DNA of 54,151 nucleotides from contig JBCLDE010000005.1 of assembly GCA_038915165.1 (NCBI GenBank), forward strand, positions 1-54,151. The letters are read 5' to 3'. The notes beneath the pieces were generated by a model. It was not told where the DNA came from, did no database searches, and saw only the letters and a list, made by a program, of their open reading frames with translations. Below are positions 61 through 46,260 of this stretch, one piece after another. Each line of letters begins with the position of its first letter. Position 1 is the first letter of the stretch. Both the position numbers and the translations under genes were made by a program. The stretch comes from Candidatus Limnocylindrales bacterium (GTDB taxonomy: Bacteria > Chloroflexota > Limnocylindria > Limnocylindrales > CSP1-4).

Positions 61-1161
61 TCAGCCGGGCGGGACCACGTCCAGGATGATCTTTCCTCGG
101 TTTTGACGGGCGAGAAGGATCGCGAACGCGTCGGCCGCCTGCACCAGCGGGTACCGGCCGTGGATGTTGGCCTGGATCCGTCCGTCTCGGGCGAGGTCGA
201 GCGCATCCTGCTGCGTCACCCGCGTCGCTCCGGACCCACCCAGGATCGAGATCCGCATCCGGAATAACCAGTTCAGGTCGACCTCGACAAGTGGCCCTGC
301 GTGCGACCCACAGACCGCGGCACGGCCGCGCCGGCCCAACGTCTTGAGCGATTCGCGCCAGATCGCCGGATCGCCCGCACTCTCGACGTAGAGGTCGATC
401 CCGTCCGGCGCGAACGCCCGGACCGACGGGGCGAAGGCGGGCTCGGCGCGGTAGTCCACGACGGCATCCGCCCCGATCGACCGCGCGTAGGCCGTTCGCT
501 CGGCGCCGCCCGCGGCCGCGATCACGCGGGCCCCCAGCAACTTGGCTAGCTGCACCGCGGCCGATCCGATCGCCCCGCTGGCACCAGTGACCAGAACCGT
601 CTCGCCGGCGCGGAGACCAGCCCGGTCGCGCATCAGCTGGAGGGCGACCGGAAAGGAATGGGTGATCGCGGTCGCTTCCGCGAAGCCCAGGTCGTCACCG
701 ATCGGGAACGCGTTCTGGGCCGGAACCGACAGGTATTCGGCCATGCCGCCCGGTCGGTGGACGCCGACGTTCTGGGTCATCGGACAGGCGTCGTCGCGAC
801 CCTCGAGGCAATCCTCGCAGCGACCGCATGCGATCCCGGGCTTGACCACCACGCGCTCGCCGGCGGCCGGAGACGCCACGCCATGGCCCTGCGCGACGAC
901 GACACCGGCCGGATCGATGCCCATGACGTGGGGCAGCTCCACCGGATGGCGAGCCTGCGCGAGCCCGCGCATGGTGAACGTATCCTGACGGTTGACGGCG
1001 ACGGTATGGACGCGGATCAGGACCTCACCCGGCGCCGGCTCGGGGATCGGCAGCTCGACGATCGCGAGTCGATCCGGATCGCCGAACCCCGTCAGCACGA
1101 TCGCGCGCATCATGCCGGGGCGCCTCGCGTGCGCATCAGGAGCGGGGCGATCATCGGCCAC
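61..1161 (-). CDS. Medium-chain dehydrogenase/reductase (Zn-binding ADH / quinone oxidoreductase family)
   Basis: Structural Zn lobe CGRCEDCLEGRDDAC, Rossmann GASGAIG, C-terminal GKIIL; the catalytic-Zn GHE motif is replaced by GID. Confidence 0.9.
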   Translation of the reverse strand: MADDRPAPDAHARRPGMMRAIVLTGFGDPDRLAIVELPIPEPAPGEVLIRVHTVAVNRQDTFTMRGLAQARHPVELPHVMGIDPAGVVVAQGHGVASPAAGERVVVKPGIACGRCEDCLEGRDDACPMTQNVGVHRPGGMAEYLSVPAQNAFPIGDDLGFAEATAITHSFPVALQLMRDRAGLRAGETVLVTGASGAIGSAAVQLAKLLGARVIAAAGGAERTAYARSIGADAVVDYRAEPAFAPSVRAFAPDGIDLYVESAGDPAIWRESLKTLGRRGRAAVCGSHAGPLVEVDLNWLFRMRISILGGSGATRVTQQDALDLARDGRIQANIHGRYPLVQAADAFAILLARQNRGKIILDVVPPG

Positions 1162-1178
1162 GGGTTGACCCTTTCGTC

Positions 1179-1424
1179 TCAGGCACCGTCGTCGAGCCAG
1201 CCGATCGGCTGCCCGACCGACACCTCGTCACCGGCTTGCGCGACGATCTCCACGAGCGTGCCCGCGTCGAGCGCCTCCATCTCGACGGTCGACTTCTCGG
1301 TCTCGATCTCGGCGATCACGTCGCCCCTGGTGACCGTGTCGCCGACCGACCGGAGCCAGCCGGCGATCCGGCCGGTTTCCGTGTCGTAGCCGAGGGTCGG
1401 CATGTTGATCGCGATCCGTGCCAT
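1179..1424 (-). CDS. Stand-alone lipoyl/biotinyl carrier domain protein (81 aa)
   Basis: MARIAINMPTLG...GDVIAEIETEKSTVEMEA...G.EV.VGQPI with the lipoyl-Lys motif ETEK; ATG at 1424 overlaps the stop of the upstream E1 beta. Confidence 0.9.
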   Translation of the reverse strand: MARIAINMPTLGYDTETGRIAGWLRSVGDTVTRGDVIAEIETEKSTVEMEALDAGTLVEIVAQAGDEVSVGQPIGWLDDGA

Positions 1425-2443
1425 CAGCCGACCAGGGATCGGACGGCGGCCACGATCTTCTCCTCGGTCGGCTCGACATAATGCTCGAGCGGCGGGCTGA
1501 ACGGGATCGGCACGTCGAGGGTGGCGACCCGTCGGATCGGGCCACGCAGTGCGTCGAATGCGTGTTCGGCCACGAGCGCGCTGATCTCCGCGCCGATCCC
1601 GCAGCTTTGATGACATTCGTCCACGACGACGAGGCGTCCCGTCCGCCCAACGGACCCAAGGATGGTGTCAAGGTCGAGCGGGACCAACGTTCGCGGGTCG
1701 ACGACCTCGGCGCTGATGCCGTCCGCAGCGAGCGTCTCGGCGGCGGCGAGCGCCTTCACGACCATGTACGAGGTCGCGACGATCGTCACGTCCGTCCCGA
1801 CGCGCTTGATGTCCGCGACTCCGAAGGGGATCGCCTCTGGCTCGTCGGGAAGCGGACCTATCGTGTCGAAGAGCTTGACGTGATCCGCCCACAGGACCGG
1901 GTTGTCGCTGGCGACCGCGGTGTGGAGTAGGCCGCGGACGTCGCGCGGCGTGGAGGGGGTCATGATCTGGATCCCTGGGGTGTTCATCAGCATCGCCTGC
2001 GGGCTGTGCGAATGCTGTGCGGCGCCGCCACCACGGATCCCGTGATTGACGTGGATGACCATCGGCACCCGCGTCTGACCACCGGTCATGTAGTGGATAT
2101 TCGCGGCCTCGTTCACGACTTGGCTGAACGCCTGAAAGATGAAGCTCGCGGTGGCGACGTCGACGATCGGGCGGAGACCGGAGATCGCGGCGCCGATGCC
2201 GGTCCCGACATAGCCGACCTCCGCGATCGGGGGGTCCCAGACGCGGTCCGGAAAGCGCTCCCGGATCTTTACGGTCAGGCTGCGATGCCTGGTCAGGCCG
2301 AAGAAGTACTGGCCCATCAGATACACCGTCGGATCGGCGGCGAGGACCTCCGTCAGGCCGCGAGCCATGCCCTCCGCGTACGTCCGCTCCGGCATCGGCG
2401 GGACGGCGTCCCCGACGACGGCCCTCGGGTCAGGCGAAGACAT
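1424..2443 (-). CDS. 2-oxoacid/acetoin dehydrogenase E1 beta subunit (copy 2, divergent)
   Basis: PIAE, G.RP.V, AAQHS, G.D.TIVA, D.RTL.PLD, TGRLVVVDE motifs; start either 2443 (MSSPDP) or 2395 (MPERTY). Confidence 0.9.
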   Translation of the reverse strand: MSSPDPRAVVGDAVPPMPERTYAEGMARGLTEVLAADPTVYLMGQYFFGLTRHRSLTVKIRERFPDRVWDPPIAEVGYVGTGIGAAISGLRPIVDVATASFIFQAFSQVVNEAANIHYMTGGQTRVPMVIHVNHGIRGGGAAQHSHSPQAMLMNTPGIQIMTPSTPRDVRGLLHTAVASDNPVLWADHVKLFDTIGPLPDEPEAIPFGVADIKRVGTDVTIVATSYMVVKALAAAETLAADGISAEVVDPRTLVPLDLDTILGSVGRTGRLVVVDECHQSCGIGAEISALVAEHAFDALRGPIRRVATLDVPIPFSPPLEHYVEPTEEKIVAAVRSLVG

Positions 2444-3449
2444 GATCGAGGGCCTCCCGGGGGTCGGGGTATGGGCTCTCCAGTGCGAACGTGATGGCCG
2501 CGACCATCTCGCTCCGTGCCGCGTCATCGATCGCACGCACGGTGTCGGGAGTCGCGCGACCCGCCTCGACCAGATCGGCGATGTAGCGGAGCACGCCGTC
2601 CTGACGCTCGTGCCAGGCTCGGTGTTCGTCGGGGATGCGGGTCGGATCCCAGGCCATCGACACGTCCGTCTCACCGGTCAGCAGCTGGGGCCAGAGCGGC
2701 CGGTTGCCAGGCCAGCGAACGGTCCGGGTCTCGAGGAAGCTCGGGCCGCCACCCGTGCGCGCACGCTCGATGGCGCGAGCCATGGCGCCATCGACGGCCG
2801 CGGGGTCCGTCCCGTCAAGGACCTCGAACGGGATCCCGAATGGCGCGACGAGGTCGGTGAGCTCGACGGCGGCGAGCGTCGACGACGGGTACTCGTTGGC
2901 TTTCTGGCCGAGCGCCTCCAGGCTGTTGTTCTCGCACAGGAAGATCACCGGGACACCGCGCATCGCCGCGATATTCGCGGCCTCGTGCCAGGCACCCTCC
3001 TCGAGCGCGCCGTCGCCGAAGATCGCGACGCTGACCCGGTCCCGCCCGAGCTCCTTGAAGGCGAAGGCGCTCCCGACCGCGATCGGCAACGACCCGCCGA
3101 CACTCGACGACGTTGTCGGGAAGCCGTGCGCCGCCGACGCCAGGTGGAGCGTTCCGCCCTTCCCACGGTTGATGCCTGTGGCCTTGCCGAGGATCTCGGC
3201 GAGCATCCCGGCGGGGTCCACGCCGCGAGCGATCAAATGACCATGATTCCGGTGCGTCGTGTACACGACATCGCCATCCTCGAGCCGGGCGAGTGCGGGC
3301 ACCCCGGTCGCCTCCTGGCCGATGTAGACGTGGAAATGGCCGACGTCGTGATCGCCCGCCAACTTGATCAACGCCTCTTCGAAGCGACGGATCCGGAGCA
3401 TCGTCCGGAGCTGATCGACCAGCTGGTCCGGGGCAAGGTCGGGCAGCAT
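2430..3449 (-). CDS. TPP-dependent dehydrogenase E1 alpha subunit (copy 2, divergent)
   Basis: H..IGQEA, HR.HGH, GKGG..H and TPP motif GDGA..EG...E..N....CENN. Confidence 0.9.
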   Translation of the reverse strand: MLPDLAPDQLVDQLRTMLRIRRFEEALIKLAGDHDVGHFHVYIGQEATGVPALARLEDGDVVYTTHRNHGHLIARGVDPAGMLAEILGKATGINRGKGGTLHLASAAHGFPTTSSSVGGSLPIAVGSAFAFKELGRDRVSVAIFGDGALEEGAWHEAANIAAMRGVPVIFLCENNSLEALGQKANEYPSSTLAAVELTDLVAPFGIPFEVLDGTDPAAVDGAMARAIERARTGGGPSFLETRTVRWPGNRPLWPQLLTGETDVSMAWDPTRIPDEHRAWHERQDGVLRYIADLVEAGRATPDTVRAIDDAARSEMVAAITFALESPYPDPREALDHVFA

Positions 3450-3462: not shown

Positions 3463-4479
3463 TCAGGGCTCTGTGGCGGGGTCGCCGGGCGTGGCGACCC
3501 CGGGCGAATCGGCGAGCGTGCGGCGGACCGCCTCGACGATCCGCTCCGCGGACGGGATAAACAAGATCTCGAGGTCGGATCCGGCGGGGACGGGCACGAA
3601 CGGCGCGCCGACGCGCTCGATCGGAGCCCGGAGCCTGGCGGCCGCCGCCGCCCCGACGCTTGCCGCGATCTCCGCGCCGAAACCGCCGGTCATCACGGCC
3701 TCGCTCGCGACGACGAGGCGCCCGGTCCGGGCGACGGACGCCACGAGCGTCTCAAGATCGAGCGGCAGCAAGCTGCGCGCGTCGACGACCTCGACCTCGA
3801 TGCCTTCGGCGGCCAGCAGGTCGGCGGCGGCCAGGGCCGTACCAACCATCCGAGACCAGGCGACGACCGTCGCATCTCTCCCCGGGCGGGCGATCGCGGC
3901 ACGGCCGATCGGCACGAGGTGATCGCCGTCCGGGACGTCGCCCTTCGCCCAGTACAGGCCGCGATGCTCGAGGAAGATGACCGGATCGTCGCTGCGGATG
4001 GCGGCCGTGAGCAGGCCCTTCGCGTCCGCCGCGTTCGAGGGTGCTACGACCGTGAGCCCCGGGACGTGGGTGAACCACGCCTCGAGGCTCTGCGAGTGGT
4101 GCGCGCCCATGCCGCCGGCGGCGCCGCCCTGGACACGGACGGTCAGCGGCACGTGGTTCTGGCCGCCCGACATGTACCGCAGCTTCGCCGCGTGGTTGAC
4201 GAGCTGATCCATCGCCAGGGTCATGAAATCCATGAACATGATCTCGAGGACCGGGCGCCGGCCGGCCATCGCCGCGCCGATCGCGAGGCCCATGATGGTC
4301 GCCTCGCTGATCGGGGTGTTCCGGACCCGGCTCTCGCCGTGGACGTCGGCGAGGCCCTTCGTCGCCCCGAACGGGCCACCCATGCTGATGTCCTCGCCGA
4401 GCAGGCAGACCGTCGGGTCGGCGGTGAGCGCCTCGTCCAGCGCCGACCGGATCGCGTCGATGTAGCGCAGCTCAGTCAT
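3463..4479 (-). CDS. 2-oxoacid/acetoin dehydrogenase E1 beta subunit (copy 1)
   Basis: GEDI..GG.FG.T.GL, NTPISE, EIMFMDF, HSQSLE motifs. Confidence 0.93.
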   Translation of the reverse strand: MTELRYIDAIRSALDEALTADPTVCLLGEDISMGGPFGATKGLADVHGESRVRNTPISEATIMGLAIGAAMAGRRPVLEIMFMDFMTLAMDQLVNHAAKLRYMSGGQNHVPLTVRVQGGAAGGMGAHHSQSLEAWFTHVPGLTVVAPSNAADAKGLLTAAIRSDDPVIFLEHRGLYWAKGDVPDGDHLVPIGRAAIARPGRDATVVAWSRMVGTALAAADLLAAEGIEVEVVDARSLLPLDLETLVASVARTGRLVVASEAVMTGGFGAEIAASVGAAAAARLRAPIERVGAPFVPVPAGSDLEILFIPSAERIVEAVRRTLADSPGVATPGDPATEP

Positions 4480-5471
4480 CGGGCGGCGACCACGTCGCGA
4501 AGCAGGTCCTCGACGCTTGGGATCGGCCCGGTCAGGGCTTCGTCTGCGGCCGCGTCAACGCGCGCGCGCGCTTGCGTTGCCAGGGCGACGCCCGTGGCAT
4601 CGTCGACGAGGCGGCGCTCCGCCAGTGCCGTGGCAAACCGCGCGATGGGGTCCTTCTGCTTCCAGTCGGCGAGCTCGGACAGCTCCCGGTACTTCGCGGG
4701 ATCACCCTCGTAGTGGCCTCGCAACCGGTATGTCAGGGCCTCCACGAACGTCGGGCCGCCGCCGGCCCGGGCCCGGGCGACCGCCTCGCCCATGGCCGCG
4801 TGTACCGCGAAGACGTCGTTGCCGTCGACGGTCGATGCCGGCATGCCATAGACACCGGCGTAATCGGCCAGCCGTTCGACCTTCGTGTGCGCGGAAAGTG
4901 GCGTGAACTCGGCATACCCGTTGTTCTCGCAGACGAACACCATCGGCAGCCGCCAGAGGCTCGCGATGTTCAGGGTCTCGTGGAAGGAGCCGGCCTGGCC
5001 GGCGCCGTCGCCGAAGAAGGCGACCGCGATGCGGTCGGACCGTTCGAGGGTCGCCGCCCAGGCGTCGCCGAGGGCGAGTGGCAGGTTGCCCGCGACGACG
5101 CCGGTCGCCGTCGCGAAGCCGACCTCGGGTGCCGCGATGTGCATCGAGCCGCCTTTGCCGCCGCAGTACCCGGTCGTCCGGCCGGCGAGCTCGGCGAGGA
5201 GGCGGACTGGGTCGGCCCCTTTGGCGAGCGCGTGGGCATGGGCGCGATGACCACCGAACACCCGGTCGCCCGGCGCGAGCCGACTGATCGCCCCGACGGC
5301 GCTCCCCTCCTGGCCGATCCCCAGGTGCAGCAGGCCGCGGATCTTTCCCTTCGCGTACAGCTCGGACGCCTTTTCCTCGAAGGCGCGGATCAGCCACATC
5401 CGCTCGAGGAGCGCCCGGCCGACGTCGGCGTCGATGGCGTCCGCCACGGGCAGATGGACGCCGTCGGTCAT
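4476..5471 (-). CDS. TPP-dependent dehydrogenase E1 alpha subunit (copy 1, AcoA/PdhA-like)
   Basis: HLGIGQE, GKGGSMH, FFGDGA...CENN, TYRLRGH..GD. Confidence 0.93.
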   Translation of the reverse strand: MTDGVHLPVADAIDADVGRALLERMWLIRAFEEKASELYAKGKIRGLLHLGIGQEGSAVGAISRLAPGDRVFGGHRAHAHALAKGADPVRLLAELAGRTTGYCGGKGGSMHIAAPEVGFATATGVVAGNLPLALGDAWAATLERSDRIAVAFFGDGAGQAGSFHETLNIASLWRLPMVFVCENNGYAEFTPLSAHTKVERLADYAGVYGMPASTVDGNDVFAVHAAMGEAVARARAGGGPTFVEALTYRLRGHYEGDPAKYRELSELADWKQKDPIARFATALAERRLVDDATGVALATQARARVDAAADEALTGPIPSVEDLLRDVVAAR

Positions 5472-7273
5472 CCGTGCGGGACCGTGCTGACGTCCGCGCC
5501 CCCCGGCGCCGGTGCCCCGTTCGACGACCGCAGGGCCTTCGTCGCGATCTCATCGACCGTCATGGTGTCAGGGTCGATCACGACCTTGTACACGTCGTGC
5601 GCGGCGGTCGGAGAGACGAACTCGTTGCGCACGTCGTCGAGCACGGCCTGCGGGTCGCGCTTGGCCGGATCGCCGACGCCGCCGCCGCCGCCCGACACTT
5701 TGCCGAGGATGTCGCCGTGCGCCACCTTTACCATCCGGTGGCTCTGGGCGTGCGTGCGTTCCTCCCCGTGCCGGATGTACATGTGCGAAAGCGGACCGGG
5801 TTGCCCGCCGCCGGCACCCGGCGGCTGGGTGAGGTCGCCATCCGAGCTGCCGGTCGCGGCGTTGACGTCGGTACCGAGGTTGAGGACCTCCCAGGCCATC
5901 CCGGATCCGCCCCGCCACTGCCCGGCTCCCGACAGGTCTGGCAGAAAATGCCATCTGACGGTCCGCCACGGGAAACGGATCTCGATCTCCTCGACGCTGC
6001 CGCGCTGGATGGAGCCCAGGCCCGACATACCCATGGCGCCCTCGAAGCCGTCGTAGCCCCAGACCGCGCCGCTGCCACCGTCGGCGTCGGTCGTGGTCTG
6101 CACGTAACGCTCGCCGGTCCGCGGATCCGTGCCCGCGAGATAGTGGCCGCGCCGACGACCCCAGCCCGCGACCGCCTTGTCGGGCATGGCCTTGGACAGG
6201 GCACTCACCGTCGCCTCGAGGACCTGCGTCCCGACGTTGACCGGCGAGCCGCCGACCGTCGCCGGGTAGGTCGCGTGGACCACGGTCCCCTCCGGGGCGA
6301 TGACCGTGATCGGGCGCATGCTGCCCTCGTTGTGGAACTCGCTGAAGGCGGGATCGAAGTACAGGAAGCTGCCGGCGACCGCCCGGCTGAAGGTCGAGGA
6401 GTAGGTGCAGTTCACGAACCCCGTGCGCAGACCGTCGCTGCGGCTGAAGTCGAGGATGAGTTCGTCGCCCTTGATCGTCGCGTCGCAGCGCACGGTGACG
6501 TTCTCGTCGAGCACCGTCCCGTCATCGTCCGTCGAGGACTCACCGGAATACGTCCCGTCCGGCACCTGGGCGAGCTGGCCACGGACGCTCGTCTCCATCC
6601 GGTCCAGCATCTCTTCGACGCAGTCGAGGACGCTGTCCTTCCCGTACTTGTCGAGCATCGCGATGATTCGGTTCTCGGCCACGTTGAGGGCCGCCATCAG
6701 GGCGTAGTTGTCGATCTTCACGCCCTCGGGGAACCGGACGTTGTTCCAGATCAACTCGAGAACGTCCGTCCGCTCCACGCCGCGGTCGTAGATCTTGATC
6801 GGCGGGATCATGATCCCTTCGGCGTGGATGTCGTACCCGTTCGGGAAGTAGCCGCCGGGGAACGACCCGCCCGTATCCATCTGATGCCCCCGCGTCAGGG
6901 CGATGAACAAGAGCTCACCGTCGTAGAAGATCGGGCGGAAGAAGCCCCAGTCGGGCAGATGGTTGCAGTAGCCCTTGTACGGGTCGTTCGCGAGGATGAC
7001 ATCGCCCGGGTGCAGGTTCTCGACGCCGAACTTGTCGATGATGTACTTCACCGTGAAGCCCTGCGAGAGGAACATCGACGTCGGGCCCTCGGGGACCGCG
7101 ATGGTCCGGCCCTGGACGTCCCAGATGCCAGCCGCCATGTCGTGGAGCTGCGCGATGAGGTAGCTCTGCGCGGTCCGATCGACGACGTGCCGCATCTCGC
7201 GGCCGATGCTCTGGAACCCGTGCCAGACGGTGGACAGGGTGATCGGGTCGATGTTCCGCGCGGTGGTGCTCAC
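5468..7273 (-). CDS. Hydantoinase B / 5-oxoprolinase-family subunit
   Basis: DPITL, GD....NDPY....HLPD, H.MD.GG, EG..IPP, G.G.WRGG.G, GGGGG.GDP..RD. Confidence 0.92.
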   Translation of the reverse strand: MSTTARNIDPITLSTVWHGFQSIGREMRHVVDRTAQSYLIAQLHDMAAGIWDVQGRTIAVPEGPTSMFLSQGFTVKYIIDKFGVENLHPGDVILANDPYKGYCNHLPDWGFFRPIFYDGELLFIALTRGHQMDTGGSFPGGYFPNGYDIHAEGIMIPPIKIYDRGVERTDVLELIWNNVRFPEGVKIDNYALMAALNVAENRIIAMLDKYGKDSVLDCVEEMLDRMETSVRGQLAQVPDGTYSGESSTDDDGTVLDENVTVRCDATIKGDELILDFSRSDGLRTGFVNCTYSSTFSRAVAGSFLYFDPAFSEFHNEGSMRPITVIAPEGTVVHATYPATVGGSPVNVGTQVLEATVSALSKAMPDKAVAGWGRRRGHYLAGTDPRTGERYVQTTTDADGGSGAVWGYDGFEGAMGMSGLGSIQRGSVEEIEIRFPWRTVRWHFLPDLSGAGQWRGGSGMAWEVLNLGTDVNAATGSSDGDLTQPPGAGGGQPGPLSHMYIRHGEERTHAQSHRMVKVAHGDILGKVSGGGGGVGDPAKRDPQAVLDDVRNEFVSPTAAHDVYKVVIDPDTMTVDEIATKALRSSNGAPAPGGADVSTVPHG

Positions 7274-39133: not shown

Positions 39134-39143
39134 CTGTATACTT
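39134..39143. promoter_or_regulatory. GTATAC box / TATACT -10 between the divergent MDR and OsmC operons
   Basis: CTGTATACTT. Confidence 0.6.
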
Positions 39144-39202: not shown

Positions 39203-39787
39203 ATGCCGTTCATCGATCGTGTGACGCTCAAACAGAACCACGAGCAGACGATCGAGCGACTGGCTGCCGAGTCCGGCTTCGGGCTGATGCGACCCAGGGT
39301 GACCGCCCGGTTGGATCGGGACGTGTCGGTCGCCTCCACCTTCGAGCAATACGGCCGGCCGTTCACCTTCCTCGGGGACGAGGCACTCGATCGTGGTGGC
39401 CACGAGACGGGGCCCAGCCCGATGCGGTACTTCCTGAGCGGGCTGGCGTTCTGCATGCTCGGCTGGTGGGCCAAGGGCAGCGCTGTCGGGGACATCGAAC
39501 TGACCTCGCTGGAGGTGAATGTCGACACCCTGCTGGACATGCGCGGCGAGCACGGGTTCACGGATGTTCCCCAGTATCCGCAATGGCTCGTCCTCGACAT
39601 CGTCGTCGGCAGCGGCGAGGCGTCCCCGGAGGCGGTCCTGGCCGCGATCGATTGGGGCGATGAACGTTGTCCGCTCGGTGTCCTGGTTCGGCGCGCCATC
39701 CCCGTCTATCAACGCATCACGGTGGATGGGACGGTCGCTCGCGACACCGTGCCGCCGGACATGCGCGGAATACCAACCGCCCGATAA
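39203..39787 (+). CDS. OsmC/Ohr-family protein
   Basis: DE....GG...GPSP..Y.L.GLA.C and ERCP (two conserved Cys). Confidence 0.8.
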   Translation: MPFIDRVTLKQNHEQTIERLAAESGFGLMRPRVTARLDRDVSVASTFEQYGRPFTFLGDEALDRGGHETGPSPMRYFLSGLAFCMLGWWAKGSAVGDIELTSLEVNVDTLLDMRGEHGFTDVPQYPQWLVLDIVVGSGEASPEAVLAAIDWGDERCPLGVLVRRAIPVYQRITVDGTVARDTVPPDMRGIPTAR

Positions 39788-39821: not shown

Positions 39822-41123
39822 ATGACGGATCCGGGCAGGCCACTGGATGCGGCGGCGCTTGACGCCGGCCTCGATGACACCCTCCGGGAAGAGCTCGTGA
39901 CGATGACCCGCGAGATGGTCGACATCCCGAGCCCGACCGGGGAAGAGGGCGAGCTCGCGTCGTACGTCCTCGACCGGTTCCGCGGGCTCGGCCTGAGGGC
40001 CGAGCTCCAGGAGGTGGAGCCGGGCCGGAGCAACATGATCGCCCGCTGGAACGGGACCGGCGACGGACCCAGCCTCCTGTTCAACGGCCATTTCGACACC
40101 GGGATGTCCGGGCGTGAAGAGGGAATCCCGTTCGGTCTGCGACCGGCGTCGCGGATCGTCGACGATGACTGGATCTACGGCCTGGGTGTCTCGAACATGA
40201 AGGTCGCCTTCGCCTGCTACTACGGGGCGATCCGCCTCCTGCAGAAGGCCGGACTGACGCCCTCGGGCGACCTGCTGGTCGCAGGTGTGGTCGGCGAGAC
40301 GGAGAAGGCCCCGATCAACGAGCATGCCGGCCCATCGGTGCGCGCCGGTGGCTGGGGCACGATCTACGCCGCCTATCACGGCGTCCTGGCCGATAACGCC
40401 ATCATCGGGGAGCCGACGGGCCTGCGCCTCCAGACCGGCAACTCGAGCTACATCTATGCGCGCGTCCGGAGTCGTGGTGCGTCGCAGCACACGTGGAGCA
40501 AGGAGCGTGGCGATGACGCGATGGCGAAGGCGATCCGCGTCCTGGAAGCGTTGCGCGCGTGGGAACCCGAGTTCGAGGCCGCGCATCCGCATCCACGGAT
40601 GGGCTCGCGGATCGGCTTCGGCGGCATCACCGCGGGGAACTCGTTCCAGCCCGCCGTCAACCCACCGCGCGTGGCCGACCTGTTCCTGGACCTTCGGTAC
40701 CCGCCGGACTCCACGATCATGGATGTCCGTCGCGAGCTCCAGCGCGAGCTGCTGCGGATCCGACAGGAGGATCCGGCTCTCGCGACCGAGCTGACGCTCT
40801 ATCTCTGCCGCAACGGATACGAGGTCGACGACAGCGAACCGGTCGTCCACGCGATCGAGGAGGCCCACGCCGACGTCTTCGGCGAGGTGCCCGGACGGCC
40901 GGAGCGGTACCGCTACGACGTCTCGGCCGACACGTCGATCCTCCATGAGTTCGGGGTACCGGCGATCACCTACGGTCCGGGCGGTCTACGTCGCGACGGC
41001 GGCCGCAGCGTCTACGACGAGTTCGGGGAGCTGGTCTCGATCAAGAACATCCTCCTGTGCACCCGCGTCTATGCGCGCGCAGCGGCCCGGCTGACGGCCG
41101 CGACGCCAGTCGGGGCCGGATGA
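39822..41123 (+). CDS. M20-family metallo-amidohydrolase (ArgE/DapE-like)
   Basis: V.IPSPTGEE, LFNGHFDT, G.G.SNMK, IGEPT, P.ITYGPG. Confidence 0.88.
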   Translation: MTDPGRPLDAAALDAGLDDTLREELVTMTREMVDIPSPTGEEGELASYVLDRFRGLGLRAELQEVEPGRSNMIARWNGTGDGPSLLFNGHFDTGMSGREEGIPFGLRPASRIVDDDWIYGLGVSNMKVAFACYYGAIRLLQKAGLTPSGDLLVAGVVGETEKAPINEHAGPSVRAGGWGTIYAAYHGVLADNAIIGEPTGLRLQTGNSSYIYARVRSRGASQHTWSKERGDDAMAKAIRVLEALRAWEPEFEAAHPHPRMGSRIGFGGITAGNSFQPAVNPPRVADLFLDLRYPPDSTIMDVRRELQRELLRIRQEDPALATELTLYLCRNGYEVDDSEPVVHAIEEAHADVFGEVPGRPERYRYDVSADTSILHEFGVPAITYGPGGLRRDGGRSVYDEFGELVSIKNILLCTRVYARAAARLTAATPVGAG

Positions 41124-42397
41124 CCATCGCGCCGCAGCCGGGCGGACTCGACGAGGCGGCGGACCCGTTCCCCTACGTCACGACGCGTCGCCTGCGCGAA
41201 CAGCGGTGGCTCCTCGACGCGACGATCCGCCAGATCGGGCTCGACTGGGACCAGGGGCGGAGCCGGTACACGGCCTACCCGGCCGGCCTCGACGCCGAGC
41301 CCGACTTCCAGCGCATCCGGGAACGGGTGCGCAAGCTGGCGGACATGTACCGCGAGTTCGCGGCCGCCGCGCGACGGCGCGAACGCCTTTCCGAGGAGGC
41401 CGAGGCGGACGGCCGGACGGTCGAGGCACGCGAGCACGCGTTCGTCGCGTCGATCCTGTGGGGCAACGCCCAGTGGCCACTGTTCGGGAACAGCCCGCTC
41501 GTCCTCGCGCTCGGCGACCGCAAGACGGCCTGCTTCGATCGCTTCATCCGCCACGCCCCGCACCCCGTCACGCGGATCGAGATCCCGTTCGGCGCGGCCA
41601 CCCTGCCGGGACTCCTCCACCTCCCCGCCGCCGGCGCCGGACCCTTCCCGTTGTTCATCCAGATCGGTGGGATGGACTCCTTCAAGGAGCACCAGGTCGC
41701 GATGTACGGCGACAAGGTGCTTGAGCGGGGCATGGCCCGCCTGTCGGTCGAGATCCCGGGTCAGGGCGTGGCCCTGGAACGCGGCCTCTTCGTCACCGAG
41801 ACCAGTGCCGCCGACGCCGGTCGGGCCATCGTCGCGTGGGCCAGGCAGCAACCGGACCTCGCCACGGATCGCGCCGTGCTGGCCGGCAACTCGTTCGGAT
41901 CGTTCTGGGCGCTGCAGATGGCCGCCGCGGTCGAGGGCCTCGCGGGCTGCGCGGTGTCCGCGGTCATCCACGAACCCGGCATGCACGAGATCTTCGAGAC
42001 GGCGTCCCCGACCTTCAAGGCCCGGTTCATGTACATGTCCGGGTACGACGACGAAGACGCGTTCGACGCGTTCGCAGCGCGCCTCGACCTGCGCCCGATC
42101 GCGGGATCCGTGCGCTGTCCGCTCCTGGTCCTCGCGGGCGAGAACGACGAGCTGAGTCCTATCCAGCACACGCTGGACCTGCTGCGTCTGGTCCTCGCCC
42201 CGGTCGACCTGCTGGTCTACCGGGGCGAGAAGCACAGCATCGGCGGCGGACCGGCGTCGGCCTTCGGACCGAACCGCCATCACGTGGTCGCGGGCTGGGC
42301 GCTGGACCGCGTGCGTGGCGTCGAGGCGCAGGATCGGTTCCGGGTCGTCGACACGACCGGGGCCGTGGAGGATCGTCCGCCCGTCTGGCGAGGGTGA
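41120..42397 (+). CDS. Alpha/beta hydrolase (2,6-dihydroxypseudooxynicotine hydrolase / FrsA-like)
   Basis: IEIPF....LPG.LHLP, GG.DS.KE, RG......PGQG, nucleophile GNSFG, GE.D, H. Confidence 0.82.
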   Translation: MTIAPQPGGLDEAADPFPYVTTRRLREQRWLLDATIRQIGLDWDQGRSRYTAYPAGLDAEPDFQRIRERVRKLADMYREFAAAARRRERLSEEAEADGRTVEAREHAFVASILWGNAQWPLFGNSPLVLALGDRKTACFDRFIRHAPHPVTRIEIPFGAATLPGLLHLPAAGAGPFPLFIQIGGMDSFKEHQVAMYGDKVLERGMARLSVEIPGQGVALERGLFVTETSAADAGRAIVAWARQQPDLATDRAVLAGNSFGSFWALQMAAAVEGLAGCAVSAVIHEPGMHEIFETASPTFKARFMYMSGYDDEDAFDAFAARLDLRPIAGSVRCPLLVLAGENDELSPIQHTLDLLRLVLAPVDLLVYRGEKHSIGGGPASAFGPNRHHVVAGWALDRVRGVEAQDRFRVVDTTGAVEDRPPVWRG

Positions 42398-42401: not shown

Positions 42402-42938
42402 ATGGCCGAGCGCGCCCCGAGAACGAGGAGGCAGCGCATGGACTCCGTCCTGCTGATCGGAGGCCTCGTCGTCGCGCTGACCGTCGTGGCGCTGTGGCAG
42501 GGCGGCGCCGCACGAGCCTTCGAAGGCTGGGAGCGAGGTGGCCAGATCGCCTGGAGCGTGCTGCCCAACCTCGTGCTTGGGTTCGCCGCCGCCGGACTCA
42601 TCGCGACCGTCGTACCGCCGTCGCTCATCGGCGGGGCCCTCGGCGACGAATCCGGCATGCGCGGTCTGATCATCGCGACCGTCGCCGGCATCCTCACGCC
42701 CGGCGGGCCGTTCCTCCAGTTCCCGCTGGTGGCGGCGCTGGCCAAGGGCGGTGCTGCACCCGGGCCGCTGGCCGCCTACCTCACCGCCTGGTCGCTCATC
42801 AGCGTGAACCGGGTGATCGTCTGGGAGCTGCCGCTGCTCGGGTCAGGCTTCACGGTCGCGCGCTGGGCGATCAGCCTGGCCCTCCCGATCCTCATCGGAC
42901 TGGCGATGCCGGTCGTGATGCGGCTGCTGCCCCGCTGA
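42402..42938 (+). CDS. Small permease (DUF318/ArsP-like)
   Basis: G.ESG.RG..IA..AG.LTPGGP...FP.VAAL...GA; alternative start at 42438. Confidence 0.75.
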   Translation: MAERAPRTRRQRMDSVLLIGGLVVALTVVALWQGGAARAFEGWERGGQIAWSVLPNLVLGFAAAGLIATVVPPSLIGGALGDESGMRGLIIATVAGILTPGGPFLQFPLVAALAKGGAAPGPLAAYLTAWSLISVNRVIVWELPLLGSGFTVARWAISLALPILIGLAMPVVMRLLPR

Positions 42939-42972: not shown

Positions 42973-43827
42973 CTACTCGCTGTAGGATGGCCCCGCGTCG
43001 CTGCGCAGCATGCCCCAGATCCTGTGCCGCAGCTCCGCGAATGCCGGATCGAGCTTGACGTTCCCCTCGGTCCGCGGATAGCCGAACGGCACCTCCAGGA
43101 TCTCGGCGATCGTTCCCGGATGCGGCGTGAAGACGGCAATCCGCTTCGAGAGGAAGATGGCCTCATCGACCGAATGGGTGACGAAGACTGCGGTCTTGCG
43201 GGTGCGCTCCCAGATCTGGAGGAGCTCCACCTGCATGACTTCTCGAGTCTGGGCGTCGAGCGAACCGAACGGCTCGTCCATCAACAGGATCTCAGGGTCG
43301 ATCGCCAACGCCCGCGCGAGGCCCACGCGCTGCTGCATCCCGCCCGACAGTTCGTGCGGATGGTGATTGATGAACTTCGTCAGGCCCACCATCTCGATAT
43401 AGCTCTTCGCCACCTCGTCGCGCTCGCCCTTCGGCCGGCCCGCCGACTCGAGCGGGAAGACGACGTTGCCGAGGACCGTCCGCCAGGGGAACAGCCCGAA
43501 GTTCTGGAAGACGAACGCTCGTTCCCGGCCGGGCCCGGTGATCTTCTTGCCGTTGACGCGGATCTCGCCGCGATCGATCGGCAGGAGGCCGTCGATAGCC
43601 TTGAGCAGGGTCGTCTTGCCACAGCCGGAGGGACCGAGCAGGCTGACGAACTCCCCGTCCTCGACACTGAGGTTGACGTCGCGGAGCGCGTGCACGCGCT
43701 CCGACGTCCCCTTCTGCCCGGCCTTGGAATAGAACTTCTCGACGTGGTCGATCTCGATCTTCCCGGTGCCCGGACTCCCCTGGGCGGGGGCGGTGGTGGT
43801 GGTTGCGTTGTCGGGTTGCACGGTCAT
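42973..43827 (-). CDS. ABC transporter ATP-binding protein (NitT/TauT/SsuB family)
   Basis: GPSGCGKT, LFPWRTV, LSGGMQQR, LLMDEPF..LDAQTR, VTHS.DEA. Confidence 0.96.
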   Translation of the reverse strand: MTVQPDNATTTTAPAQGSPGTGKIEIDHVEKFYSKAGQKGTSERVHALRDVNLSVEDGEFVSLLGPSGCGKTTLLKAIDGLLPIDRGEIRVNGKKITGPGRERAFVFQNFGLFPWRTVLGNVVFPLESAGRPKGERDEVAKSYIEMVGLTKFINHHPHELSGGMQQRVGLARALAIDPEILLMDEPFGSLDAQTREVMQVELLQIWERTRKTAVFVTHSVDEAIFLSKRIAVFTPHPGTIAEILEVPFGYPRTEGNVKLDPAFAELRHRIWGMLRSDAGPSYSE

Positions 43828-43926: not shown

Positions 43927-44970
43927 TCACACGGGAGTCCGGCTGCTGCCAGCCATCGCCGCGCGGAGTTCCGGCACGACCTCCGCTGCGATGAGCTCGA
44001 GCATCGACTCGAACTCTTCGAACTGGAACCGCACGTCGAACACGAAATGGTCGAATCCACGGTCCCAGAGCTTCATGACACCATCGACGATGTCGCCCGG
44101 CTCGCCAGCGAACACGGCTCCCTCGACATCCTCGAGCGTATCCCACCAGCCCGACGCCGGCTTCATCCAGTGGTGCTGACCATCCTCGACGAGGCCGGCC
44201 ACGTTCACCGCGGCACGGGCTTTCGCGCGGTCGCGGCCGATTTGCACGCGAGGGACGGACAGCAGCCCGAGTCGACGTCCGCTCTGGGCCTCGAGCTCAT
44301 GCAGGCGCGCGAGCCGATCGTCCATCGTCAGGAACGGAAGGGTCCCGATCAGATAGCCGTCCGCGTGCTCGGCGGCGATCTCTACGGCCGTCCGCGACGG
44401 TCCGCCGAACCAGAGCGGGATCGGCGACGCGGGCTTCGGCTCCAGGGTCACATCATCGACGCTGAACACCTCGCCCTGGACCGTGACGTGGTCTTCGGAC
44501 AGGGCGCGCCGGATGATCTCGATCATCTCGATGACGGCGATCCGGCGCTGTTTCACGTCTACCCCACCGAGGGCCAACTCGTCGCCGCCGTGGCCGGCTC
44601 CGATCCCGGCGACGACACGCCCACCCGTCAGGAAGGACAACGCCGCGAGTTCCTGGGCGAGCTTGAGCGGGTGGCGCGTGGGGATCAGCACGGATGTCCC
44701 GAGCTGGATCCGGCTGGTCCGTGCCCCGAGCGCCGCGAGTGTCACGATCGGCTCGATGAACCGGATGCTGCTGGCTGCCTCGTGGGCGTGCGGTCGCCAC
44801 AGGAGGTGGTCGCGGACCCAGACCGCATCGAAGCCGAGACGCTCGACGAGTTCTCCGGCTGCCATCAGCCGCTCGGGCGTGGCGTACGCACCGAAATGCG
44901 GCAGCATCACGCCGAAAGTCATACCCTTGGCGTTGCGTGCCAGCGGGTTGGGGACGACGGGTAGGCTCAC
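43927..44970 (-). CDS. LLM-class flavin/F420-dependent oxidoreductase (paralog of 25145..26104)
   Basis: FGVMLPHFG, LGFDAVWVRDH, EP.VTLAAL.ART, RHP..LA; start either GTG 44970 or ATG 44922. Confidence 0.9.
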   Translation of the reverse strand: MSLPVVPNPLARNAKGMTFGVMLPHFGAYATPERLMAAGELVERLGFDAVWVRDHLLWRPHAHEAASSIRFIEPIVTLAALGARTSRIQLGTSVLIPTRHPLKLAQELAALSFLTGGRVVAGIGAGHGGDELALGGVDVKQRRIAVIEMIEIIRRALSEDHVTVQGEVFSVDDVTLEPKPASPIPLWFGGPSRTAVEIAAEHADGYLIGTLPFLTMDDRLARLHELEAQSGRRLGLLSVPRVQIGRDRAKARAAVNVAGLVEDGQHHWMKPASGWWDTLEDVEGAVFAGEPGDIVDGVMKLWDRGFDHFVFDVRFQFEEFESMLELIAAEVVPELRAAMAGSSRTPV

Positions 44971-45020
44971 GACAATCCCTTCACGTCGGGCCGGGCGCGA
45001 TGGCAGCTGCCATTGCGCAT

Positions 45021-45032
45021 CTAGTATACAAA
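45021..45032. promoter_or_regulatory. GTATAC box between the divergent LLM and LVIVD genes
   Basis: CTAGTATACAAA. Confidence 0.6.
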
Positions 45033-45132
45033 CCATAGCGCCTTCACGCATGAATAAAACACCCGGATCGTCACTCGTCCACATTTATGCAAGCTAGACT
45101 TCGTCGGGACATCCACGCATCGGAGGCACCTT

Positions 45133-46260
45133 ATGGCGGACGCATGGAACATCCGGCTGGTCGGGCACACGGATCTCGGTGGCCAAGGGGATGGCATGCA
45201 CGTCGGATTCAAGGACGGGTATGCGTTCATCGGTCACATGGGGGAGACAGGGACCTCGATCGTCGATATCCGCGATCCTCGGGATCCACGGCTGGTCGGC
45301 CGGATCCCGGTCGGCGGGGACACCCATGCGCACAAGGTCCAGATCTCGGGCGACATCCTGATCACGAACCGGGAACTCATCCCGCGCCGGACCGGTCCGC
45401 ACGTCGCCGGCCTGATGGTCTACAACATCTCCAACCCGACGGCGCCGCGCGAGATCGGGTTCTGGCCGTGCGGCGGCCTGGGCGTCCACCGGATGACCTG
45501 GTGGGATGGGCCACTCGCGTACGTGACGGCCGGCGACGACGAGATCGAAGGTCAGTTCCTGGTCGTCCTTGACCTCTCCGAGCCGTCGCGCCCGACCGAA
45601 CTGGGCCGCTGGTGGATGCCCGGCCAGCGCCGCGGCGAACCCAATGACTGGGATGACAGCTGGCGGGTCAAGCTGCATCATGCGATCGTCCGAGACGGGC
45701 TCGCGTACTGTAGCTGGTGGGATGAGGGCCTCGTCGTCCTCGATGTCAGCGAGCCTACGGCGATCAGGAAGGTCGGCCAGCTGAACCTGGGACACGACGC
45801 GCAGCGCTCGACCCATACATTCTGCCCCTTGCCGGGCCGCGCCATCGCGGTGACGACGGAGGAGCGAATCATGCCGGGCTGCGATGGCGTGGCGCCGAAC
45901 GCCCACCTCGTCGACATCGCCGATCCCTCGAACCCGCGGCTGCTCTCGACCCTGCCCGTCCCGGAGGGCAACTTTTGCGCCCGTGGCGGGCGGTTCGGCC
46001 CGCACAACGTCAACGAACCCGAGCCCGGAGCGCTGGTGGACGGCAACACCGTATATCTGACGTATTTCAACGCTGGCGTGCGCGTCATCGACGTCAGCGA
46101 CGCGCTGAATCCCCGCGAGATCGCCTACTACGTGCCCGACGCCCCGCCCGGGCAGCCGACCACCCAGCTCAATGACATCACGGTGACGCCCGATGGGCTG
46201 ATCTATGTCACCGACCGGCTCGGCGGCGGCCTCTACATCCTGGAGCGAACCGCCGGCTGA
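45133..46260 (+). CDS. LVIVD-repeat beta-propeller protein, His-rich (unknown function)
   Basis: Repeated (L/I)V.D.(S/R)(D/N/E)P..P units; His motifs HAHK, GVHR, LHH, STHT, RFGPHN; YFNAG.RV.D. Confidence 0.85.
   Translation: MADAWNIRLVGHTDLGGQGDGMHVGFKDGYAFIGHMGETGTSIVDIRDPRDPRLVGRIPVGGDTHAHKVQISGDILITNRELIPRRTGPHVAGLMVYNISNPTAPREIGFWPCGGLGVHRMTWWDGPLAYVTAGDDEIEGQFLVVLDLSEPSRPTELGRWWMPGQRRGEPNDWDDSWRVKLHHAIVRDGLAYCSWWDEGLVVLDVSEPTAIRKVGQLNLGHDAQRSTHTFCPLPGRAIAVTTEERIMPGCDGVAPNAHLVDIADPSNPRLLSTLPVPEGNFCARGGRFGPHNVNEPEPGALVDGNTVYLTYFNAGVRVIDVSDALNPREIAYYVPDAPPGQPTTQLNDITVTPDGLIYVTDRLGGGLYILERTAG

Follow-up and report, generated by a model that had tools for sequence, protein, structure and literature searches.

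We report here an accessory island of at least 46 kb at the start of a contig from a Candidatus Limnocylindrales bacterium (JBCLDE010000005.1, assembly GCA_038915165.1). It is rather probable that this island works as a single regulon controlled by its GntR-family regulator, g35, and that its substrate is a nitrogen-containing cyclic compound or a few related ones. The contig (C5 of the source genome, G000) is the entire window, i.e., the whole stretch of 54,151 bases that was analysed. Its G+C content (GC) is about 0.69 from end to end, and the G000 assembly has 2.42 Mb in 165 contigs and is 77% complete. Genes were called from third-position GC, then checked against Pfam, and are numbered as in Table 1. 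The initial annotation, made from the sequence alone, had counted about 42 contiguous genes, almost all catabolic or for uptake, between positions 61 and 46260, with one regulator and no housekeeping gene before tRNA-Ala and leuS, and the Pfam matches and gene calls bear this out, with 42 genes. These genes encode two sets of molybdenum (Mo) hydroxylases, hydantoinases A and B (HyuAB), two alpha/beta pairs of thiamine pyrophosphate (TPP)-dependent E1 enzymes, a lipoyl protein, two Zn-dependent alcohol dehydrogenases (ADHs), a short-chain dehydrogenase (SDR), three luciferase-like oxidoreductases (LLMs), an SdhBACD-like set, an isochorismatase-family hydrolase, a bicupin, an amidase, and two members of the nitrilase superfamily. 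The remainder are a creatinase-like M24 protein, an M20 deacylase, an alpha/beta hydrolase, OsmC and DoxX proteins, an LVIVD propeller, parts of ATP-binding cassette (ABC) transporters, a major facilitator superfamily (MFS) transporter, a short permease, and the GntR/FCD regulator. A fourth luciferase-like oxidoreductase, at 49748, lies beyond the island. Since the genes fall into strand runs with many 4-base stop/start overlaps, we infer ten transcription units, which form five divergent pairs.

The evidence for common control is a palindrome with the core GTATAC. It is found in 5/5 divergent promoter gaps (at 10567, 19550, 26144, 39136, and 45024) and at three further sites ahead of internal genes, two before g24 (24972 and 25061) and one before g29 (28833). 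Its flanks widen the palindrome to a T-rich/A-rich 12-mer, and the consensus from 26 sites is tttGTATACaaa. The genome contains 55 GTATAC hexamers (22.7 per Mb). The island, with 1.9% of the genome, accounts for 11 of them (P = 7e-9), eight of which fall within its non-coding 4.4% (P = 2e-9). For the longer string TGTATAC, we count 10 matches where shuffles predict 0.30, and 0/100 shuffles reach 10. Outside the island, only 3 of the 44 GTATAC sites are near paralogues of island genes, even though 12% of the genome is near such paralogues. Therefore, the motif marks the island and not gene families.

The position of the motif is conserved in other genomes. We searched for footprints in 13 loci (L111-L122 and L131), leaving out the other 66 metagenome loci, and in the loci of G641, a genome from a different genus of the same family, taken from a class-level sample. 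All six metagenome contigs that cover the region upstream of the g18 orthologue (L117-L121 and L131) have the motif about 65 nt from that gene, and it also occurs in the gap between the LLM and NMT1 genes of L117 and in the gap between the GntR and NMT1 genes of genome G076. The positions in G641 match those of the window: the gap between the dead nitrilase and the LLM, the one between the LLM and the substrate-binding protein (SBP) gene, upstream of the nitrilase, and the OsmC/ADH gap.

An excess of GTATAC could also arise without any regulatory role, if the hexamer were avoided genome-wide (e.g., under pressure from a restriction system) and had not yet been purged from a recently acquired island. 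The rarity of the hexamer in this genome and the accessory nature of the island would fit this scenario. Yet the sites concentrate in the small non-coding part of the island, they hold their positions upstream of orthologues in contigs that are just 60-83% identical at the protein level, their similarity extends into the flanks, and the composition of the island is that of the genome. We also compared GTATAC with the 24 palindromic hexamers of the same composition: it alone shows a ten-fold enrichment, the next being TGTACA (3.5-fold). This control led us to reject restriction avoidance as the cause of the excess, and a non-regulatory origin seems very improbable. TGTACA, itself a GT..AC palindrome, is found 9 times in the island against 2.6 expected, and two of the gaps have CTGTAC half-sites next to GTATAC. 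TGTACA may be a variant operator.

The natural candidate for reading these sites is g35, which has a GntR domain (Pfam, 1.4e-16) and an FCD domain (2.1e-11). According to PMC7797058, Atu1419, an FCD-type GntR regulator of the VanR group from Agrobacterium fabrum, binds ATGTATACAT in a crystal structure, the palindrome overlaps -10 boxes, and an operator of the form GT-Nx-AC is a family signature of such regulators. The core of this operator, TGTATACA, is also that of the island motif, and palindromic sites of the GT-Nx-AC type occur at the putative target promoters, in 5/5 divergent gaps and in three internal gaps. The same paper places Atu1419 inside a species-specific catabolic region (SpG8-1b), as g35 is here, but its targets serve hydroxycinnamate degradation and the putative regulon of the island is much larger, with ten units. 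In our reading, g35 would bind the tttGTATACaaa sites and repress all ten units until a small-molecule effector comes, most likely a carboxylated substrate or intermediate of the pathway.

Some results weigh against this reading. The relation of g35 to Atu1419 is distant (E = 4.9e-6), three of the 11 island sites are within coding sequence, and a 35-kb G641 contig with genes of the left half has a single GTATAC, which lies inside the SdhA-like gene. Moreover, two island sites overlap -10-like hexamers, and the motif could be a promoter element instead of a repressor site. Whether operator or promoter element, either role implies common control. A sigma-70 scan of positions 9300-27500 gave 2 matches against 1.0 by chance, and a terminator scan gave 4 against 4.5, so neither exceeded chance.

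The accessory status of the block from position 1 to about 46360 can be read from the relatives. The leuS gene has matches in 33/40 genomes of the genus (75-89% identity), and in six relatives from the genus whose contigs are long, both leuS and the LLM that follows it are 77-86% identical to ours. The 28-46 kb upstream of leuS hold island genes in 0/6 of these genomes, and the only matches there are ABC-ATPase and LLM paralogues at 26-31% identity. Instead, the backbone upstream of leuS in the relatives corresponds, in order, to pieces of other G000 contigs (C37, C83, C21:1400-7050, and C30:22688-23460), the last of which lies 250 bases from the end of C30. DNA searches with thirds of the island found syntenic matches in 1/60 genus genomes (G076) and short paralogue-level matches (2Fe-2S, E1-beta, amidase, and ABC-ATPase motifs) in the other 59; these searches scored four candidate regions per genome, so that weak matches may be missed. 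An orthologue of g18 (E <= 1e-190) was found in 0/130 other genomes of the genus.

The right junction lies inside a truncated gene, because the Amidohydro_3 gene next to the tRNA is full-length in the relatives and matches here only up to about 46360. By DNA search, positions 46407-46684 are conserved backbone, the 5' end of a gene that is intact in the relatives. The remnant left in the window has about 115 codons, includes the HxH motif region, and is 66-72% identical to the relatives' gene. The rest of the gene was not found in the G000 assembly, and a comparison of the end of C30 with the window ends, made for amidohydrolase leftovers and for repeats, showed nothing above noise. An antisense open frame runs on across the LVIVD gene by chance. 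At the other side, the contig begins inside the block, so that 46 kb is a minimum for the size of the island.

Some points weigh on the other side. Its left end is cut by the contig start, none of its 42 genes belongs to an integrase or transposase family (Pfam), its GC (0.692 versus 0.688 for the genome) is not deviant, and its tetranucleotide correlation with the genome (r = 0.991) is inside the range of 38 contigs (0.984-0.998). Thus, among the marks of a genomic island, the block has absence in relatives and disruption of a gene on the tRNA side, but neither mobility genes nor deviant composition. The fragmentation and incompleteness of the assembly and the break of synteny next to a tRNA gene raise the question of an assembly or binning artefact, in which the contig would fuse DNA of two organisms at the tRNA. 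We find this extremely unlikely: GC and tetranucleotide usage are as in the rest of the genome, the junction falls within a gene remnant whose 5' part resembles that of the relatives, and the same gene set is found in a genome of the same family (G641). C21 beyond 7050 and C30 before 22688 form a second stretch missing from the relatives' backbone, with HyuAB paralogues (29-36%), a bicupin (39%), an SDR, ABC parts, and an Mo subunit. Given this second variable insert with paralogues of island genes, the tRNA-Ala neighbourhood seems to be a hot spot for such catabolic genes.

The gene set recurs elsewhere. A scan of metagenomes with g18 retrieved contigs at 80-83% identity, two of which (L117 and L118) reproduce the window from 7.3 to 23.6 kb with protein identities of 59-83%. 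In window order, L117 has the SDR (67%), then, after a strand switch, the large (83%), medium (67%), and small (72%) Mo-hydroxylase subunits, the isochorismatase (78%), SdhB (62%), SdhA (66%), SdhC (68%), and SdhD (59%), then, with a switch before each, the LLM (73%) and NMT1 (78%), followed by the start of HyuA. L118 supplies the two permeases, the bicupin (77%), and DoxX. In G076, each of three modules has a small contig of its own: HyuAB plus both E1 pairs (85-91%), a GntR-NMT1-creatinase-like-Mo-hydroxylase-LVIVD block (41-70%), and an ADH-lipoyl-nitrilase-NMT1 block (41-64%). The most complete set is that of G641, where 36/42 island genes have matches of at least 50% identity on four contigs and three more match at 32-38%, with local order kept; these four contigs gave no match to the SDR, DoxX, or the short permease. 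There, a single-strand run joins MoS (the small Mo-hydroxylase subunit), LVIVD, isochorismatase, NMT1, HyuAB, both E1 pairs, ADH, lipoyl protein, and SdhBACD. Since linkage has survived the rearrangement in G641, we argue for functional coupling. The system is rare: g13 was found in 1/400 genomes of the class sample (G641) and in 0/400 of the phylum sample.

These comparisons also hold points against a single pathway. The ADH-lipoyl genes adjoin the nitrilase in G076, and HyuAB/E1 stand between the amidase and the Sdh-like genes in G641. With modules rearranged between genomes in this way, several substrates are possible. The best 80 relatives of g13 in genome contigs (40-46% identity, from Proteobacteria and Methylomirabilota) have an SdhB-like gene nearby in 57/80 cases, an Mo subunit in 1/80, and an isochorismatase in 0/80, and they retain the canonical fumarate-binding residues. 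For g18, 34/400 genomes of the phylum sample (a tally that includes the unpublished genome G289) have a relative at E <= 1e-190, with a best identity of 56%, and the relatives at 45-56% (contexts of G504, G534, G495, and G250) are accompanied by Mo-hydroxylase sets only.

A flexible region may thus have gathered unrelated small catabolic operons, which drew a common promoter or operator from the same gene pool and form no single pathway. The ten units with their two transport systems, two ADHs, two Mo-hydroxylase sets, and three LLMs would agree with such a patchwork, and so would the paralogous clusters on contigs C4, C21, C34, C47, and C49 of G000, the different order of modules in G076 and G641, the distant g18 relatives whose several Mo-hydroxylase sets lack the other island genes, and the second variable insert next door (C21 and C30). 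But the motif is specific to the island and present in all its divergent gaps, most of the genes are found together in another genus with the motif at matching promoters, and genes that are rearranged yet still linked are the usual sign of functional coupling. The shared motif and the G641 gene set are why the patchwork, which we initially favoured, was dropped as the preferred explanation; we now regard it as doubtful, though deserving some weight. The initial annotation had proposed a co-regulated catabolic island. The palindrome shared by the five divergent gaps and kept in place in orthologous contigs agrees with co-regulation, the absence from the syntenic site in 6/6 relatives and of the marker g18 from 130/130 genus genomes agrees with an island, and the G641 genes show that the homologues are not scattered.

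Several observations concern the wider distribution of these families. G000 holds about 11 paralogues of the Mo-hydroxylase large subunit, and contig C1 of G504, from the same family, has four separate Mo-hydroxylase sets in 60 kb (L197-L199). The LVIVD propeller adjoins Mo-hydroxylase genes in G076, L120, and G641 (identities of 34-70%; copies at L115 13946-15070, L120 9560-10747, and G641 C212 33284-34387), and in the window it is about 9 kb from the nearest Mo-hydroxylase set, at the right end of the island.

What does the island degrade? None of 20 tested proteins reaches an NCBIfam equivalog cut-off, and only g10 passes a subfamily-domain model, which weighs against any precise assignment. 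The substrate is therefore one that we can only infer, from enzyme families, as an N-heterocycle, lactam, hydantoin, or nitrile. Judged by these family cut-offs alone, as no search aimed at its absence from print was made, the island is an undescribed system, as had been proposed. The companion statement that many members have altered catalytic residues holds for the SdhA-like g13, the nitrilase paralogue g26', and the M24 protein g31, and was overstated, since these are 3/9 enzymes checked; g29, g28, g15, g39, g18, and the SdhB-like g14 keep their key residues.

Three-component Mo-hydroxylases are recognised by Pfam in g16-g18 and g32-g33; the catalytic Glu was checked for g18 only, where it lies in GVGEAG and aligns with the Glu of 8UEM. 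The closest solved relatives of g18 are CoxL (8UEM, 467 bits), 6-hydroxypseudooxynicotine dehydrogenase (7DQX, 460), and quinoline 2-oxidoreductase (1T3Q, 427). Form I aerobic carbon monoxide dehydrogenases have the active-site loop motif AYxCSFR. The loop of g18, AERGAGR, lacks the Cu-binding Cys (8UEM: AYACSFR), and the NCBIfam models of carbon monoxide dehydrogenase stay below cut-off. The second large subunit, g33, scores against aldehyde oxidoreductase (241 bits), quinoline oxidoreductase (231), and 4-hydroxybenzoyl-CoA reductase (229). Its C-terminal 2Fe-2S fusion reverses the usual order of the iron-sulfur (FeS), flavin adenine dinucleotide (FAD), and Mo parts, and a separate match to the FeS part follows the Mo subunit directly in G076 and G641.

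The hydrolases are similarly remote from characterised enzymes. The genes of the HyuA and HyuB families overlap, and HyuA has N-methylhydantoinase (431 bits) and a 6YRA chain (426) as best solved relatives, with the caprolactamase models at 620 (CapA) and 334 (CapB) bits for a cut-off of 1000. The isochorismatase-family g15 keeps its Asp-Lys-Cys and is closest to 4L07 (103 bits), N-carbamoylsarcosine amidohydrolase (101), and 3OT4/3UAO (84). We take 4L07, 3OT4, and 3UAO to be maleamate amidases, although their entry titles read only "isochorismatase family". The best solved relative of g39 (nucleophile motif GNSFG) is 2,6-dihydroxy-pseudo-oxynicotine hydrolase (2JBW, E = 1.2e-15), and that of the bicupin g21 is gentisate 1,2-dioxygenase, at E = 2.9e-6 only, in a weak alignment with HxH in both domains. 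The nitrilase g29 scores about 180 bits against NitA and cyanide dihydratases, and its triad segments FPEGF, RRKIVP, and LMCGENSN align with those of NitA. The amidase g28, judged by motifs only, has GGSSGG and the Lys motif. In g26', Gly stands in for the catalytic Cys. The G641 orthologue, at 54% identity, has the same Gly, so the protein looks like a maintained pseudo-enzyme or partner subunit; its gene heads the operon that also holds g29. In g31, 4/5 metal ligands of M24 enzymes are replaced, as in metal-free creatinase-type enzymes, and this is kept in G641 and G076. Two NMT1/THI5-like proteins, g09 beside HyuA and g30 beside the creatinase-like gene, have positions conserved in other genomes, and may be cytoplasmic ligand-binding or enzymatic partners instead of transport proteins. 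Among the LLMs, g10 exceeds the cut-off of TIGR03619 (194 bits for 166.9), and g42 and g25 are below it. In the G000 genome, of which 77% is at hand, no member of the F420 ligase family PF01996 turned up, so biosynthesis genes lend no support to the F420 assignment of the LLMs.

From these families, a pathway can be sketched for an N-heterocycle, lactam, hydantoin-like ureide, or nitrile derivative. Uptake would be by the NitT/TauT-type ABC system and the MFS transporter. The two Mo-hydroxylases would hydroxylate beside the ring nitrogen, HyuAB would open a cyclic amide in an ATP-dependent manner, and the bicupin dioxygenase together with a C-C hydrolase could cleave the ring. Nitrogen would be released by the nitrilase, the amidase, the isochorismatase-type amidase, the metal-free creatinase-like hydrolase, and the M20 deacylase, and the carbon skeleton would be processed by the two TPP-dependent E1 enzymes with the lipoyl carrier and the alcohol dehydrogenases. 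The four-subunit complex-II-like enzyme, whose FeS wire and membrane anchor are intact, would tie one step to the quinone pool, probably one that saturates or desaturates a C-C bond of a non-dicarboxylate substrate.

The substrate could instead be a non-aromatic cyclic ureide or guanidine of the creatinine, hydantoin, or allantoin type, not an N-heteroaromatic or nitrile compound. This is suggested by N-methylhydantoinase as best solved relative of HyuA, by the score of g15 with N-carbamoylsarcosine amidohydrolase, which nearly equals its best, by the metal-free creatinase-like state of g31, and by the xanthine dehydrogenase PucD as closest NCBIfam model of g33. However, the ureide-type scores are all far under the family cut-offs, g31 scores higher with prolidase (91 bits) than with creatinase (60 bits), no sarcosine oxidase or dehydrogenase family is found among the 42 genes (Pfam), g18 groups with the quinoline and 6-hydroxypseudooxynicotine enzymes, and g29 is a true nitrilase whose triad is intact. 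We thus hold a ureide or guanidine to be an unlikely substrate.

The complex-II-like enzyme is the most unusual member of the island. Its make-up is that of complex II as in Escherichia coli (FrdABCD and SdhCDAB) and Mycobacterium smegmatis (Sdh, 7D6V): a flavoprotein, an FeS subunit with the Cys motifs of the 2Fe-2S, 4Fe-4S, and 3Fe-4S clusters (g14), and two anchors, which are three-helix membrane proteins (g12 and g11). It differs from these in its gene order, B-A-C-D, and in standing in an operon with an Mo-hydroxylase and an amidase. The flavoprotein g13, with residues numbered by alignment to E. coli FrdA (K-12 record), has no FAD-linking histidine at H44 (GRSGCS instead of RSH-T) and has Leu for H232, Glu for T244, and Trp for R390. 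It retains the proton-donor Arg, R287, and H355, so that two of three fumarate-binding residues in the flavin domain are exchanged, for Leu and Trp. The subunit composition of a complex II is thus present, and the covalent-FAD His and the full set of dicarboxylate-binding residues are not. PMC5773532 describes the roles of these FrdA residues as FAD ligand, fumarate-binding residues, and proton donor, and PMC9557727 states that homologues with non-covalent FAD reduce fumarate and that succinate oxidation by them is impossible.

These changes are not a peculiarity of one genome. They are also in L117, and among the best 120 of 3405 homologue clusters at E <= 1e-60, the FAD-linking histidine is missing from all. 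The motifs QFLS(V/I)G and HGxxWxGGNG are found in P0001-P0048 (51-91% identity) and seven others, about 55 of these 120 clusters, and the rest keep QFHPTG and HGANRLGGNG. Since the substitutions are conserved across clusters, and since two canonical SdhA/FrdA-type genes are elsewhere in the genome (on C8 and C1), we place g13 in a conserved, unrecognised subfamily, very probably one without dicarboxylate binding. We can go further, more tentatively: the SdhBACD-like enzyme might be a new functional class of complex II, a quinone-linked membrane flavoenzyme with non-covalent FAD whose rebuilt site saturates or desaturates a C-C bond of an uncharged cyclic amide or N-heterocycle, and the 42-gene regulon the complete pathway for a natural N heterocycle whose bacterial degradation is undescribed. 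This larger proposal is a possibility that we doubt more than we believe.

By its enzyme mix, the island resembles parts of the nicotine pyridine, maleamate-forming pyridine, and N-methylhydantoin routes, and by family content it is a member of none. The nicotine "pyridine pathway" cluster of Paenarthrobacter nicotinovorans pAO1 likewise has two three-component Mo-hydroxylases, a nitrilase-superfamily member, and transporters, and it provides close solved relatives of g39 (2JBW) and g18 (7DQX). But these similarities are distant (E of about 1e-15 for the hydrolase), no amine oxidase of the 6-hydroxynicotine oxidase type or FAD-monooxygenase/flavin hydroxylase family is found among the 42 genes (Pfam), and HyuAB, the two E1 pairs, the complex-II-like enzyme, the LLMs, and the bicupin are extra. 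Aerobic nicotinate (nic) and related maleamate-forming pyridine pathways share with the island an Mo-hydroxylase and an isochorismatase-family amidase (g15). In contrast, the families of 6-hydroxynicotinate monooxygenase, NicX-type dioxygenase, deformylase, and maleate isomerase were not detected in the island (Pfam), whose candidate for ring cleavage is the bicupin. The likeness to creatinine/N-methylhydantoin degradation lies in HyuA, g15, and g31, whereas the scores are under cut-offs, the island has no sarcosine-oxidising enzyme, and that pathway has no role for its Mo-hydroxylases, nitrilases, and E1 enzymes.

Most of what is known about catabolic islands for N-heterocycles comes from Actinobacteria and Proteobacteria in culture. 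The one described here belongs to an uncultured lineage of soil and sediment Chloroflexota, its enzymes are remote from characterised ones, and, with ten units and one operator type, its size is unusual for a single putative regulon. The putative pair of g35 and its operator offers a practical route to the substrate. Furthermore, the approximately 55 clusters of variant SdhA are all annotated as succinate dehydrogenase, so that annotation hides a subfamily very likely not acting on succinate. If this is true, the reaction scope of a textbook respiratory enzyme widens.

Table 1. Features of the window, with coordinates, strand, and basis of assignment. Percentages are protein identities to the genome or locus named.
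Feature	Positions	Strand	Basis or remark
g01, Zn-dependent alcohol dehydrogenase (MDR family)	61..1161	-	Pfam ADH_N/ADH_zinc_N; G641 53%
g02, free-standing lipoyl-domain protein, 81 aa, motif ETEKS	1179..1424	-	Pfam Biotin_lipoyl
g03, TPP-enzyme E1 beta, pair a	1424..2443	-	Pfam Transket_pyr/Transketolase_C; G641 82%
g04, E1 alpha, pair a	2430..3449	-	Pfam E1_dh; NCBIfam PDH_E1_alph_y 222 bits, below cut-off 394
g05, E1 beta, pair b	3463..4479	-	Pfam; G076 85%
g06, E1 alpha, pair b	4476..5471	-	Pfam E1_dh; NCBIfam 323 bits, below cut-off 394
g07, hydantoinase B/oxoprolinase-type subunit	5468..7273	-	Pfam Hydantoinase_B; caprolactamase beta 334 bits, below 1000; G076 91%, G641 83%
g08, hydantoinase A (ATP-dependent lactamase/hydantoinase/carboxylase family)	7270..9393	-	Pfam; PDB 7HK5 431 bits, 6YRA 426 bits
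Variant site TGCATACA upstream of HyuA	9451..9458
g09, NMT1/THI5-like, no signal peptide, cytoplasmic by sequence	9521..10519	-	Weak Pfam NMT1; L117 78%, G641 64%
Operator-like site CCTGTATACAGG, g09/g10 divergent gap	10567..10572
g10, luciferase-like oxidoreductase, F420-type subfamily	10576..11661	+	Pfam Bac_luciferase; TIGR03619 194 bits, above cut-off 166.9
g11, SdhD-like membrane anchor	11682..12050	-	Pfam Sdh_cyt; hydropathy
g12, SdhC-like membrane anchor, 3 hydrophobic segments	12047..12541	-	Pfam Sdh_cyt
g13, SdhA/FrdA-like flavoprotein, altered active site	12541..14289	-	Pfam; PDB alignment; E. coli FrdA numbering
g14, SdhB-like iron-sulfur subunit, three cluster motifs kept	14265..14999	-	Pfam Fer2_3/Fer4; Cys motifs
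g15, isochorismatase-family cysteine hydrolase (amidase type), Asp-Lys-Cys kept	15007..15705	-	Pfam; PDB 4L07 103 bits
g16, Mo-hydroxylase 2Fe-2S subunit	15715..16254	-	Pfam Fer2_2
g17, Mo-hydroxylase FAD subunit	16251..17123	-	Pfam FAD_binding_5/CO_deh_flav_C
g18, Mo-hydroxylase large subunit, CoxL-form-II/Kdh/Qor clade	17125..19494	-	Pfam; PDB 8UEM, 7DQX, 1T3Q
Operator-like site TTTAGTATACGAAG, g18/g19 gap, 56 nt upstream of g18	19550..19555		Same site in 6 orthologous contigs
g19, short-chain dehydrogenase	19638..20429	+	Pfam adh_short; L117 67%
g20, DoxX membrane protein	20426..20917	+	Pfam DoxX
g21, bicupin, weakly gentisate-dioxygenase-like	20931..22010	-	Pfam Cupin_2 x2; PDB 3BU7 E 2.9e-6; L118 77%, G641 63%
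g22, ABC permease	21964..22761	-	Pfam BPD_transp_1
g23, ABC permease	22758..23606	-	Pfam BPD_transp_1
g24, substrate-binding lipoprotein, NitT/TauT type, lipobox LAAC	23739..24887	-	Pfam Phosphonate-bd/NMT1; SsuA_fam 52 bits, below cut-off
Operator-like site upstream of SBP g24, overlapping a -10-like hexamer	24972..24977
Operator-like site TGTATACA upstream of SBP g24	25061..25066
g25, luciferase-like oxidoreductase	25145..26104	-	Pfam; TIGR03619 121 bits, below cut-off
Operator-like site, g25/g26' divergent gap	26144..26149		Same gap in G641
g26', nitrilase-superfamily paralogue, catalytic Cys to Gly	26168..27352	+	tblastn 42% to g29; Pfam CN_hydrolase
g28, amidase-signature amidase, GGSSGG and Lys present	27349..28794	+	Pfam Amidase; motif
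Operator-like site between amidase g28 and nitrilase g29	28833..28838		Also upstream of the G641 g29 orthologue
g29, nitrilase, Glu-Lys-Cys triad intact	28889..29968	+	Pfam; PDB NitA 6ZBY 182 bits
g30, NMT1/THI5-like, no signal peptide	29965..30867	+	Pfam NMT1
g31, creatinase/prolidase-fold (M24), 4/5 metal ligands missing	30867..32039	+	Pfam; PDB alignment to 1PV9
g32, second Mo-hydroxylase FAD subunit	32042..32971	+	Pfam FAD_binding_5
g33, second Mo-hydroxylase large subunit with fused C-terminal 2Fe-2S domain	32964..35744	+	Pfam; NCBIfam pucD 441 bits, below 784
g34, MFS transporter	35741..37159	-	Pfam MFS_1
g35, GntR-family regulator with FCD domain, sole island regulator	37156..37899	-	Pfam GntR+FCD; G641 55%, gene order kept
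g36, Zn-dependent alcohol dehydrogenase	38036..39079	-	Pfam
Operator-like site, g36/g37 divergent gap	39136..39141		Same gap in G641
g37, OsmC-like protein	39203..39787	+	Pfam OsmC
g38, M20 ArgE/DapE-type deacylase	39822..41123	+	Pfam Peptidase_M20; NCBIfam 131 bits, below cut-off 218
g39, alpha/beta hydrolase, nucleophile motif GNSFG	41120..42397	+	Pfam; PDB 2JBW E 1.2e-15
g40, short ArsP_1-like permease	42402..42938	+	Pfam ArsP_1, partial
g41, ABC ATPase	42973..43827	-	Pfam ABC_tran; G641 75%
g42, luciferase-like oxidoreductase, start revised to MTFGV	43927..44922	-	Pfam; N-terminus
Operator-like site, g42/g43 divergent gap	45024..45029
g43, LVIVD-repeat beta-propeller	45133..46260	+	Pfam LVIVD; G076 70%, adjoining Mo-hydroxylase
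Amidohydro_3 N-terminal remnant, island right junction	46360..46704	-	Pfam, 56 of 472 profile positions; full-length in relatives
tRNA-Ala(GGC), first conserved backbone feature; leuS next	46735..46810	+	Rfam

Two minor results concern the gene calls. The minus-strand open reading frames at 26101-26793 and 26690-27388 have no Pfam match and were replaced by the single plus-strand nitrilase paralogue g26', on the basis of Pfam and tblastn. In an Rfam search, the tRNA was the sole match, with no riboswitch. The backbone 3' of leuS encodes a cupredoxin (51042-51428), a PadR regulator (53176-53499), and, at the contig end, a fragment of a DDE_3 transposase (53638-54141).

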